Of a stretch of 64,000 bases of DNA, positions 13,024-15,093 are shown piece after piece. The position numbers and the translations under genes were made by a program. Position 1 is the first letter of the stretch; every line of letters begins with the position of its first letter. The stretch lies in NCBI GenBank assembly GCA_011915565.1, contig GCA_011915565.1_3920.1; one strand, given 5' to 3'. The stretch is from a phage. The notes under the pieces were generated by a model. That model was not told where the DNA came from. It did no database searches and saw only the letters and a program-made list of their open reading frames with translations.

Positions 13024-13114
13024 AATGACCTCAAAGTTATATTAAATTTTGTATTACATTGAGTATAAAAATAAGCTATAACACCTGACTTGTCAACAGA
13101 TTTTATAGCTTATT

Positions 13115-13510
13115 TGGCAGATTTTTATAAGGCTACTGCCATCCTTCCATACATTACCTAACCAAGCCGAACATCACACAACCAGACCGAGCCGTACCCC
13201 GCCTTATTAAAAGACCCTCTTTAAAGACCTTTTAAAAAGGTGAGTCTCATTTTAATGTAGCTGAGACTAACTACCCTCACCTTACCTCACCTGACCTGAC
13301 CTGACCCTACCTAACATTACCGTGCCACACCTCACTTAAAAACCCTCTTAAAAGACTCTTAAGTGATGTAATCGAATTTTTATGTAGCTCCGATTAACTA
13401 CCCATACCTTACAACACCAAACACCACCTTACCATACCTAACCAAGCTAAGCCTTGTTAAAAGACCCTGTTTAAAGACCTTTTAAAAAGGAGCCTCCGAA
13501 GAGGCTACCT
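13115..13510 (-). repeat. composite repeat block: conserved hairpin units separated by G-depleted pentameric tracts
   Basis: Units sharing ttaaaagaccct(c/g)tttaaagaccttttaaaaagg at 13205, 13335 and 13455; tracts like ctcaccttacctcacctgacctgacctgaccctacc almost lack G on the + strand. Confidence 0.7.
13484..13508 (-). terminator. intrinsic terminator after the 13518-13958 gene
   Basis: On minus strand: agcctc-ttcg-gaggct hairpin followed by cttttt. Confidence 0.6.
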
Positions 13511-13517
13511 AGTCAAC

Positions 13518-13958
13518 TTAGAAAGGTTTTCTGCGTTGCTTGTTAATATTAGCTTTCATAGCAGCTAAGTGATTTTGCTGTTCAATCAGTCGTGAACGTT
13601 CTTGATGACTAAGTGCCATAGTGTTCACATTCTCAATCGCTTGAGTGGCTTGCTTTAAAGCACGACCAATCTTACCAGACATTTTGCGTTTTGCAATAGT
13701 TGCTTGATGCTTAGGTTCAACCACACGATAACCAACACCCATTGAAGCAACCAGATAAATCTTCTCTTCTTTAAGAAGTTTTTCAATAAACTTTTCAAGT
13801 CGGTTTAGACGTGTAAGCGCATAAGCCTTCATTTCATCTTCGTACTTAACAATGTCACCTTGATAAGTTGGCTTCACAATACCTAAGAAGGTGTCCATCT
13901 CAGAATGAGATACAGTGTCACCGTAACTAAACTTTGCTGCTAATGCTTTTGTATTCAT
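13518..13958 (-). CDS. hypothetical protein (repeat-flanked cassette, gene 2)
   Basis: 146 aa ORF, basic C-terminus; no motif recognised. Confidence 0.5.
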   Translation of the reverse strand: MNTKALAAKFSYGDTVSHSEMDTFLGIVKPTYQGDIVKYEDEMKAYALTRLNRLEKFIEKLLKEEKIYLVASMGVGYRVVEPKHQATIAKRKMSGKIGRALKQATQAIENVNTMALSHQERSRLIEQQNHLAAMKANINKQRRKPF

Positions 13959-13960
13959 AA

Positions 13961-14548
13961 TTAAACGTTACCTTCTGAAATAACTTCTACAGAAAAACGA
14001 CCAAAGCGTGGACGCCAATCACCTACACCGCAAAGGTTACCAGCATTTTCCAGAACCATCAAGAGTTCCTCTTTGGTGATTTGCTCTTCATCGAACATCA
14101 AACCGAACTCTACAGACCAGTCACGGAAGATTGGACGGTAGCTCATAACTCGTGCTGTACCAATCTTAACAGACTTAGCATAGATGAAGTCTGGATTCTT
14201 AGCAAGTTCTTGTGGGTTTGCTGGACAGTTCTTGATAGTCATTGGGAAGACTACATCTGTTAGCATAATGGCTCGGTCAATTACCTTACCAAGTTTGTTG
14301 AGTTTTGCACCAGACTTGATACAAGCCTCAATCATCTCACCGTTCATAACAAAACCTAGCTGCTCATCGTAGTAACAAGAGGTTACCAGTTGGCTTTCTG
14401 CTAAGAGCGCATAGTCTTCGTCAGTCTTTTTACGTTTACTGGACAGAGACTTGTGATATTTTGTCAGAGGGTTTAACGGGTCTGACAGCGTATCGTTATG
14501 ACTCAAGAAAGGACGAGTACCAGTGATTTTGATATTTAACAGTTTCAT
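13961..14548 (-). CDS. hypothetical protein (repeat-flanked cassette, gene 1)
   Basis: Track ORF begins with GTG at 14563; internal ATG (MKLLNIK) at 14548 has GGAG 9 nt upstream. Confidence 0.5.
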
Positions 14549-14624
14549 AGCATTTAGCTCCACACTTTAGTTGATTGTTAAGTTGTTTGTAAAGAACCCT
14601 CAACAGAAGACTCTTTAGAAACTT

Positions 14625-14880
14625 GGTAGATTTTTAATGTGGCTACTACCATCCACCCTTACCAGACCAGACCAAGCCAAGCCCAACACTACCGAACCGG
14701 ACACGACCAGACCTTATTAAAAGACCCTGTTTAAAGACCTTTTAAAAAGGTAAGTCTCATTTTAATGTAGCTGAGACTAACTACCCACACCAAACCATAG
14801 CATACATCGCATTACCGGACAGAACCATACTTTACCAGACATCACTTAAAAACCCTCTTAAAAGACTCTTAAGTGATGCT
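14625..14880 (-). repeat. second copy of the composite repeat block (diverged)
   Basis: About 75% identical to 13115-13275, including ggtag...ctacc hairpin where the first copy has ggcag...ctgcc; ccttattaaaagaccctgtttaaagacc and acttaaaaaccctcttaaaagactcttaagtgatg recur. Confidence 0.7.
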
Positions 14881-14908
14881 GGTGAGTACCTGTTGGTTTA
14901 TGCTGCTC

Positions 14909-14936
14909 AGTATACTCACCAAATTTTCTATGTCAA
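14909..14936 (-). promoter_or_regulatory. candidate sigma70-type promoter reading into the repeat block and cassette
   Basis: Minus strand TTGACA-N16-TATACT. Confidence 0.4.
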
Positions 14937-15093
14937 CAACTTTTTATAAAAAAGTTCTGATAGCTATATGTGTCACGAAACAAAAGATTGTAAACAAGAC
15001 ACCCATTGCAAAAGATGTGTCCAAAAGCTTACTTGCAACGTATGACAATACAAAGACAACCAGTATAAACAGAATGACTGTACTGAACATAGT

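Follow-up and report, generated by a model that had tools for sequence, protein, structure and literature searches.

The closest described counterpart of the element treated here, which occupies positions 13068-14936 of a 64,000-nt stretch of phage DNA (GenBank assembly GCA_011915565.1, contig GCA_011915565.1_3920.1; the whole stretch is called the window below), is the Viral Interference Programmable Repeat (VIPR) system, described in two 2026 preprints (bioRxiv 10.64898/2026.04.26.720920 and 10.64898/2026.04.26.720927). According to these preprints, a VIPR comprises Vipr, an ancestral RAMP protein of ~20 kDa, a vap accessory gene and vrRNAs, each made up of 9-16 YNNGG repeats, with a conserved GGY and a hypervariable NN, and a ~40-nt tail with a pseudoknot. 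In the Escherichia phage SUSP1, one Vipr protomer is reported to bind each repeat through the GGY bases to build a right-handed helical filament, while the NN dinucleotides pair with double-stranded DNA in the gapped register NNxNNx... (the "1-nt skip rule"), in an R-loop triplex that blocks transcription. The ~100-nt vrRNAs, their co-purification with Vipr and the silencing were established in that phage by small RNA sequencing, pull-down, cryo-electron microscopy, and GFP and plaque assays, and its natural targets lie mostly on a satellite phage of E. coli (bioRxiv 10.64898/2026.04.26.720920 and 10.64898/2026.04.26.720927).

RAMP proteins or repeat RNAs borne by mobile elements without adaptation modules are also found in type IV-B Csf systems and among RNA anti-CRISPRs (Racrs); Csf assembles on heterogeneous RNA, Racrs mimic CRISPR repeats to poison Cas proteins, and neither is known to use pentamer-coded guides. 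A protein that reads short RNA repeats with one subunit per repeat, as in VIPR, is known from the trp leader, where the TRAP oligomer binds 11 (G/U)AG triplets separated by 2-3-nt spacers. In T4-type phages, repeated promoter/stem-loop modules (PeSLs) lie on either side of accessory genes and can bring about the gain and loss of these genes; such cassettes were reportedly described by Arbiol and colleagues in 2010. We know of no sequence relation between PeSLs and the units of the window.

A previous reading of the window, made from its letters alone (the sequence-only reading), had described the region as a two-gene cassette between diverged direct repeats with covarying hairpins, had thought of an attenuator or antiterminator leader, a structured RNA or RNA sponge, or a recombination-bounded cassette, and had recognised no described element in it. 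This last statement holds for the curated databases and fails for the literature, which now includes the VIPR preprints. The combination of in-phase GGYNN units with hairpin/pseudoknot tails therefore points to a type II VIPR system, and we are nearly certain that the region 13068-14936 of this Felix O1-like phage holds a VIPR locus of type II that belongs to the SUSP1 clade, with genes for Vipr (195 aa; a minimal RAMP of the Cas7-like kind) and Vap1 (146 aa) and with five vrRNAs. The element is of a kind already described; in essence it is the VIPR published for SUSP1. Protein fold and identity, repeat grammar, tail structure and matches to the satellite under the 1-nt skip rule only carry this identification.

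Results and Discussion

Both minus-strand genes of the earlier description are present with the limits given for them (Table 1). The product of vipr is a small (~20 kDa) stand-alone RAMP with an RRM core, G-loop and thumb, and 191 of its 195 residues are those of SUSP1 Vipr (97.9% identity to phiSUSP1 and SUSP2 in tblastn), which places it in the SUSP1 clade, delimited by more than 90% identity to SUSP1 Vipr. The product of vap shares 145 of 146 residues with YP_009199428.1, encoded downstream of vipr in SUSP1. The two genes adjoin each other in a minimal locus whose neighbours are the ligase gene and ORF87-like genes. No recognisable domains had been seen in the two proteins, and sequence-level searches of Pfam and NCBIfam indeed returned 0 domain matches, PHROGs listing both as "unknown function". 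A single-sequence AlphaFold2 model of Vap, with a helix-helix-helix-beta-hairpin arrangement in its N-terminal half, was of low confidence (predicted local distance difference test score 68) and too weak for a fold search.

The blocks that flank the genes, previously estimated as ~75% identical, contain a 247-nt direct repeat (13122-13368 vs 14632-14878) at 78% identity, and turned out to be tandem arrays of ~125-nt units on the minus strand, with two units ahead of the genes and three behind them. Each unit consists of a 39-nt A/U-rich hairpin module, 10-11 in-phase GGYNN pentamers and a ~36-nt hairpin/pseudoknot tail, whose hairpin has a conserved loop. The modules alternate between two versions, X and Y, and a third, Z, precedes vipr. 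The 5-nt period that had been called degenerate is real and, contrary to that description, exact: when [G/T]G[T/C] was scored over 11 slots, exactly five sites of the 64-kb window reached 9-11/11, each of them on the minus strand and within 13129-14856, against a maximum of 5-6/11 in 30 dinucleotide-preserving shuffles. With 10-11 pentamers, the five tracts lie within the 9-16 YNNGG repeats (conserved GGY, hypervariable NN) that characterise VIPR. The plus strand is depleted of G within the tracts, as had been noticed, although they are not free of it (4-16% of guide bases). A wider sample of 66 unique guides, taken from 29 loci whose proteins are 95-100% identical, gave 805 pentamers in which position 1 is G (80%) or T (14%), position 2 is G (99%) and position 3 is T (89%) or C (11%). 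Entropies of the five positions are 0.89, 0.13, 0.50, 1.92 and 1.89 bits, positions 4-5 being near-random, and 64 of the 66 guides have 9-16 pentamers, the other two having 17 and 19. The AGGUGAGGUAAGGUG motif, described before as Shine-Dalgarno-like, consists of plain GGY/NN repeats within the vrRNA4 guide, with ~1.9 bits at each of pentamer positions 4-5. Searches of the window for tRNAs and against Rfam found nothing, and the Rfam gathering threshold was not reached in 14 tract-bearing loci either.

The hairpins GGCAG..CTGCC (13116-13140) and GGTAG..CTACC (14625-14650), whose compensatory differences had been taken as a sign of selected secondary structure, are present and belong to the tails of the units. 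An alignment of 16 distinct tails bears that interpretation out: a 7-bp hairpin and a 4-bp pseudoknot, 11 pairs altogether, are paired in 91.5% of cells, compared with 28-38% when partners are slid, and 0/500 shuffles reach the observed score. Changes on both sides were found in nine of the 11 pairs, six of them in the hairpin and three in the pseudoknot; the latter joins the loop to the first bases after the last repeat and is 100% paired, as GUAG:CUAC, GUGG:CCAC or AAGG:CCUU. The units thus end in a conserved ~40-nt 3' tail with hairpin and pseudoknot, as VIPR guides do. The 39-nt modules of types X and Y can be aligned without gaps as an 18-bp helix with 92.8% of cells paired and six pairs changed on both sides, and several of their G.U pairs form on the sense strand alone. 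Since X and Y are essentially two lineages, this covariation amounts to few independent events. Covariation in tails and modules upholds the view that the blocks contain structured non-coding RNAs with selected hairpins.

When the locus was compared by BLAST with 5,426 complete E. coli genomes, a vrRNA-type tail was found in unannotated DNA of 30 chromosomes. The surrounding island, of ~11.6 kb (in E. coli JML285, 5488-17074 of L159; L numbers designate the loci compared), carries genes for a serine recombinase, a baseplate protein and a tape measure along with small genes, and belongs to a satellite family (L158, L161-L168) whose members often have a Dam-like methyltransferase or helix-turn-helix (HTH) gene. 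Megablast matches to this family were obtained in 546 of the 5,426 genomes (about 10%). Its members were seen at three integration sites, inside yecE (DUF72), between wrbA and ymdF, and between tonB and yciI, and often contain many insertion sequence elements. The island matched by the guides is the satellite family named in the preprint, because L163 carries WP_096972663.1 and WP_096972664.1, the satellite accessions given there. It came to light through the vrRNA tail and not through the baseplate-hub gene, which had no DNA BLAST match in the E. coli genomes, the search with the hub protein returning Felix-like phages only.

The guides were scored by the fraction of their NN bases matched in eleven satellite variants (133.6 kb). 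Under a skip of 1 nt, 48 of the 66 guides reached at least 80%, 22 at least 90% and one was perfect. The corresponding numbers at 80% were 1/66 without a skip, 2/66 with a skip of 2 and 1/66 with a skip of 3, none of them reaching 90%, and 7/198 for guides with shuffled pentamer order, again with 0 at 90%. In five satellites (60.5 kb) 35 of the 66 guides matched under the 1-nt skip, compared with 0/66 in the flanking chromosome (50.8 kb). Where matches fell inside an open reading frame (ORF), the skipped base was codon position 3 in 24 of 29 cases, 16 sense and 8 antisense. All five window guides had their best matches in the satellite (Table 1), and their best NN matches within the 64-kb window itself ranged from 0.68 to 0.80; the sole value of 0.80 (vrRNA3, 16/20, AT-rich) is at chance level by a binomial estimate.

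Two further observations concern these guides. The 10-NN pattern of vrRNA2 has an exact match in two metagenomic viral contigs of IMG/VR (L156 706-734 and L157 1192-1220; 0.95 and 0.91 over 11 NN), inside a 278-aa ORF beside a 2,290-aa ORF and with the skipped base at codon position 1, which may be a chance match or an unrelated target; exact 10-NN patterns of vrRNA4 and vrRNA5 gave zero matches in IMG/VR. The satellites, on their side, have a vrRNA of their own in a 2.6-kb non-coding stretch (L158 14951-15055, L159 14987-15091, L163 13297-13400, L166 12863-12950), with 13 pentamers, a tail of the vrRNA2 type and a guide that hardly differs between six satellites. This common guide has no match of at least 0.7 in other satellites or in the window, whereas for the guide of L166 other satellites offer matches of 0.89. 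In the satellites themselves no Vipr homologue was detected, a 184-aa satellite protein considered as a hidden Vipr showing no similarity.

The window belongs to a Felix O1-like phage: its 13000-15000 region matches 231 phage records in megablast, nearly all of them Ounavirinae at 90-95% identity, which are Felix O1-like myophages with Escherichia, Salmonella, Shigella and Citrobacter as hosts. All these records carry units, and about 118 Ounavirinae records carry vipr. For a closer comparison we used 28 related loci from GenBank phages and IMG/VR, all of which have the two predicted promoters P1 and P2 (Table 1) with at least one unit in between. Ten of the 28 have neither gene and keep one unit (Felix O1, ASO1A, L006, L012, L022) or two (L008, L014, L016, L023, L027), which agrees with the earlier idea of a gene cassette that may be present or absent between the repeats. 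In the remaining loci, 2-3 units are followed by both genes, a UUCG-loop terminator and another 1-3 units. Unit lengths vary in 5-nt steps (117, 122, 127, ... 157), and the single unit of Felix O1 (L003 2939-3018) is a hybrid with an upstream-type Y hairpin and a downstream-type GGCAG tail. Of the 12 orphan guides that phages without vipr carry, six have matches of at least 0.8 in the E. coli satellite, the one of L023 matching satellite L165 perfectly.

Orphan units might result from recent loss of vipr, make use of Vipr in trans from co-infecting relatives, or act as decoys, and phage genomes could gain or lose vipr-vap through recombination from unit to unit. The 39-nt X, Y and Z hairpins could be biogenesis signals of type II vrRNA arrays, either as RNase III-type processing sites or as promoters or terminators of the units; sigma70 promoters inside the X/Y modules reach at best 9/12 consensus matches, without conservation. 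The available preprint text does not cover covarying 5' hairpins or orphan guides, nor does it cover unit recombination, and that the hairpins, the orphan guides and unit recombination are functional is a tentative suggestion, about which we are more doubtful than convinced.

Compared with the type II VIPR of SUSP1, the locus of the window shares its proteins (98% identity for Vipr and 99% for Vap1), its place next to the DNA ligase gene on one side and the ORF87 homologue on the other, the GGY/NN vrRNAs with pseudoknot tail and the target family. It differs in the host phage, a Felixounavirus rather than a Suspvirus, in having five vrRNAs (2 + 3) rather than four (1 + 3), in the guide sequences, and in the 39-nt modules ahead of the guides, which the preprint text available does not discuss. 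The distance from class 1 CRISPR-Cas systems is much larger. Vipr has just 6-17% sequence identity to Cas7 proteins (Csm3, Cmr4, Csf2); the period is 5 nt with two paired bases, whereas CRISPR effectors use 6 nt with five paired; and specificity resides within the repeats and not in spacers. No CRISPR repeat-spacer array and no cas1, cas2, cas5, cas6, cas11 or other cas gene was found at the locus, where Vipr is the sole RAMP.

An attenuator or antiterminator leader, in which transcripts from P1, alone or with a TRAP-like protein bound to the triplet repeats, would switch between hairpins and so govern read-through into the genes, could draw on the position of P1 ~350 nt upstream of vipr, on the CCUUUUU that follows the vrRNA1 tail hairpin, and on TRAP sites, whose geometry of triplets plus 2-nt spacers resembles that of the tracts. 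The hairpin with its U-run does lie near 14745-14788, about where it had been located; it is made up of the vrRNA1 tail and the CCUUUUU at the start of the next module, and is most simply a vrRNA 3' end and not an attenuator. Moreover, three of the five units are downstream of the genes, past a strong terminator, vipr-less phages retain units although P1 and P2 enclose no gene there that could be regulated, and in unrelated phages tracts stand before, after and between genes (after them in L149 and L150). TRAP forms a closed ring of 11 subunits, binds a set number of sites and acts by attenuation, while here a RAMP filament would be formed on a variable number of repeats with informative spacers; tracts of 9 to 47 pentamers across phages and a RAMP partner protein led us to reject a TRAP-like 11-mer ring. 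Together with NN positions that match foreign DNA, this leaves the attenuator extremely improbable, and the proposal of an RNA sponge did not find support.

It could also be thought that the locus functions at the DNA level, its G-rich, C-poor non-template tracts (sense-strand guides contain 43% G and 9% C) forming R-loops or G-quadruplexes downstream of a strong promoter and serving as a replication origin or recombination hotspot. The location amid replication genes (ligase, polymerase, td, frd) and the different copy number of units between phages would fit such a role. A G-quadruplex or R-loop would however require neither pyrimidines at position 3 nor strict 5-nt phasing, and positions 4-5 hold target information under one specific skip rule; the covarying G.U-containing hairpins point to an RNA function of the sense strand, and cryo-electron microscopy of a 98% identical system reveals Vipr-bound RNA according to the preprint. 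We give this possibility almost no credence. A PeSL-type cassette, with units that mainly shuffle the two genes between phages, could draw on comparative data, namely the presence or absence of vipr-vap between identical flanks, the hybrid unit of Felix O1, the 5-nt steps in unit length, and the larger number of records with units than with vipr. These explain how genes are gained and lost, not the nature of the units, and only vrRNA function accounts for the GGY/NN grammar, the tails and the target matches; in addition, PeSLs are not known to act as guide RNAs. Cassette recombination is probably a side-effect of the tandem repeats, and it is very unlikely to be their main purpose.

Several other candidates had been considered for the tracts. 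A Rho rut site on the plus strand, primase recognition clusters (T7-type GGGTC/TGGTC) and Chi-like or RecA-preferred GT tracts were all dropped because the NN positions carry target information, and mini-ORFs in the units (for instance 22 codons from a GUG in the first Y module) were rejected because unit lengths differ by multiples of 5 nt, not 3.

The identification as a type II VIPR has to be weighed against some less favourable data. Only five of the 11 pentamers of vrRNA1 have a strict GGY, the others being UGY, AGU or GCU; vrRNA2 and vrRNA5 reach just 0.82 on the eleven satellite variants, where 3.5% of shuffled guides reach 0.8; and the match of vrRNA4 puts the skipped base at codon position 2 of an annotated coding sequence. 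Expression and mature ends of the five vrRNAs are assumed from SUSP1, and the source papers on VIPR are preprints (bioRxiv 10.64898/2026.04.26.720920 and 10.64898/2026.04.26.720927).

Given the 98-99% identity of the proteins, we assume that in the window phage, too, vrRNAs of ~100 nt would be expressed, bind Vipr and silence their targets. P1, possibly along with unit-internal signals, would drive transcription of the vrRNAs and of vipr-vap; Vipr would then coat each guide from the 3' pseudoknot toward the 5' end, and the filaments would bind satellite DNA and repress the satellite. During infection, the phage would in this way silence a parasite of Felix-like phages through vrRNA1, vrRNA3 and vrRNA4, and possibly also through vrRNA2 and vrRNA5, and be protected from a parasite that borrows its tail genes.

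Table 1. Features of the type II VIPR locus in the window, in the order of minus-strand transcription, with the best satellite match of each guide
Feature	Position	Strand	Description	Best satellite match (fraction of NN bases; place; context)
P1, predicted sigma70-type promoter	14909..14936	-	TTGACA-N16-TATACT; consensus scan 11/12; ahead of upstream vrRNA array and vipr	
Hairpin module, type Y	14840..14878	-	39 nt, A/U-rich; directly 5' of guide 1; in minimum free energy (MFE) fold	
vrRNA1	14751..14841	-	guide of 11 pentamers 14841..14787; hairpin/pseudoknot tail 14786..14751	0.95; L165 9145-9176; 711-nt coding sequence, skipped base at wobble position
Hairpin module, type X	14712..14750	-	39 nt; CCUUUUU start comes after vrRNA1 tail hairpin	
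vrRNA2	14623..14713	-	guide of 11 pentamers 14713..14659; tail GGGUGGAUGGUAGUAGCCACAUUAAAAAUCUACC 14658..14623	0.82; L167 4628-4659; borderline
Hairpin module, variant Z	14585..14622	-	between vrRNA2 and vipr ribosome-binding site; homologous to X/Y core; MFE-predicted hairpin	
vipr	13961..14548	-	195-aa stand-alone RAMP (Cas7-like) protein	
vap	13518..13958	-	vap1-type accessory gene; 146 aa; phrog_5926	
Intrinsic terminator	13481..13506	-	AGCCUCUUCGGAGGCU + CCUUUUUAAA; 3' of vap; terminator scan; in all cassette-bearing relatives	
Hairpin module, type X	13452..13490	-	sequence parse, X/Y covariation	
vrRNA3	13369..13453	-	guide of 10 pentamers 13453..13404; tail 13403..13369, stem AAUCG/CGAUU	0.90; L159 7927-7955, L164 5417-5445; intergenic, tape measure/baseplate genes
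Hairpin module, type Y	13330..13368	-	sequence parse, X/Y covariation	
vrRNA4	13241..13331	-	guide of 11 pentamers 13331..13277 (tcacc tgacc tgacc run); tail 13276..13241	0.86; L166 9734-9765, L161 8617-8648; small satellite coding sequence
Hairpin module, type X	13202..13240	-	sequence parse, X/Y covariation	
vrRNA5	13114..13203	-	guide of 11 pentamers 13203..13149; tail GGAAGGAUGGCAGUAGCCUUAUAAAAAUCUGCC 13148..13114	0.82; L168 10715-10746, L164 10479-10510; borderline
P2, promoter	13068..13115	-	TTGACA-N17-TATTTT; inside 19-nt inverted repeat; locus boundary, next operon's start	

The P1 sequence, which had been proposed as a promoter before, scores as noted in Table 1, is kept in all 28 related loci and would, from its consensus match, act as one. 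An 8-bp inverted repeat, GGTGAGTA...TACTCACC (14881-14920), overlaps its -10 hexamer and is kept in Felix O1 and ASO1A. At the other end, P2 carries a promoter annotation in phage ASO1A; its -35 region is bracketed by the inverted repeat 13069-13087 / 13097-13115 (AAATAAGCTATAACACCTG / CAGATTTTATAGCTTATTT), 89% complementary, which looks like an operator, and a Cro/CI-type HTH gene is found at 12463..12134, ~600 nt downstream. The terminator after vap has a UUCG loop and is fused to the next X module, the start of which is the terminator U-run.

On the minus strand, the locus comes after the gene for DNA ligase (16233..15094) and before a conserved gene of 127 aa (13023..12640), with an HTH regulator and the frd and td genes further downstream. 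Between the ligase gene and P1 there is a 48-aa ORF (14944-15090, minus strand; phrog_22006, "unknown function"), also found in ASO1A and without annotation in Felix O1. The best megablast match of the locus is 90700-92597 of GU169904.1, the 147-kb record of "Staphylococcus phage SA1", and "Campylobacter phage" records match it as well (MG065668.1); these records evidently hold sequence of a Felix O1-like coliphage, a sign that the deposit may be chimeric or mislabelled. In none of the roughly 118 Ounavirinae records that carry it is the system annotated, the entries reading "hypothetical protein", "repeat_region" or "possible binding site of StbAB", and the Felix O1 genome paper does not describe the repeats. 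Existing annotations of vrRNA regions are misleading, such as "direct repeat sequence4 possible binding site of StbAB", a bare "repeat_region" or "terminator" (KT184315.1 86014-86024, which is L001 1993-2003; MN850635.1 34729-34775), and one Y hairpin of ASO1A is annotated as a rho-independent terminator.

Tracts of this kind extend far beyond Felix-like phages. An exact scan of IMG/VR for five GGTNN followed by GGT gave at least 120 stretches, and among the matches listed there are many unrelated viral contigs with non-coding in-phase (GGYNN)n tracts of 9-47 pentamers. Such tracts stand downstream of sigma70-like promoters, ahead of ribosome-binding sites or of terminator-like hairpins, or in the spaces between T-arm-like stem-loops. 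Homologues of the 195-aa protein number 520, none of them with a Pfam domain, and occur in phages and prophages of Proteobacteria and Actinobacteria. In at least seven unrelated contigs, the ORF directly downstream of the tract starts with an ..IKGxxPLLxH.. motif, as in the window protein, and in a JGI contig and a Rhodococcus prophage a Vipr homologue is followed by a second small gene and then by tract arrays. As the scan used the bare pattern, this association does not depend on homology, and the protein and the pentamer tract therefore travel together across very distant phages.

Guides in the Rhodococcus prophage and in several phages from metagenomes have between them an acceptor-like helix and a T-arm-like stem-loop, GGCGG-UUCGAUU-CCGCC (L150 4117-4658, L098 4812-5100, L038, L054, L107 6000-6260; for example GTCCGGG..GGCGGTTCGATTCCGCCGCCGGAC). 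Two of the five units in L150 are called "tRNA-???" by ARAGORN, and at E < 1 the Rfam search of L150 gave solely 17-nt matches to the tmRNA T-arm, far below threshold. These spacers suggest processing of the RNase P/Z type. The preprint text available does not cover arrays interspersed with T-arms, and mentions analogous arrays interspersed with hammerheads (bioRxiv 10.64898/2026.04.26.720920 and 10.64898/2026.04.26.720927). Perfect pentanucleotide microsatellites, (GGTCA)n, (GGTTC)n, (GGTCG)n and (CTGGT)n, some of them in open frames, were also recovered (L036, L048, L052, L108) and could be guides that have recently slipped or degenerated, or else repeats with no relation to guides.

Concluding Remarks

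VIPR has been proposed as the viral ancestor of CRISPR RAMP effectors and constitutes a minimal form of programmable DNA targeting, with a ~20-kDa protein, a guide of less than 100 nt and no requirement for a protospacer adjacent motif. This work indicates that such a system can be recognised from raw sequence alone, while Pfam, NCBIfam, PHROGs, Rfam and GenBank records as yet carry no annotation of it. In addition, the published 1-nt skip rule and the satellite target were reproduced independently with guides of other phages, which confirms work so far available only as preprints. For the Felix O1 group, which includes therapy and typing phages, a hypervariable locus is thereby identified, and it is probably this locus that decides whether a phage overcomes the satellite present in about 10% of complete E. 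coli genomes.

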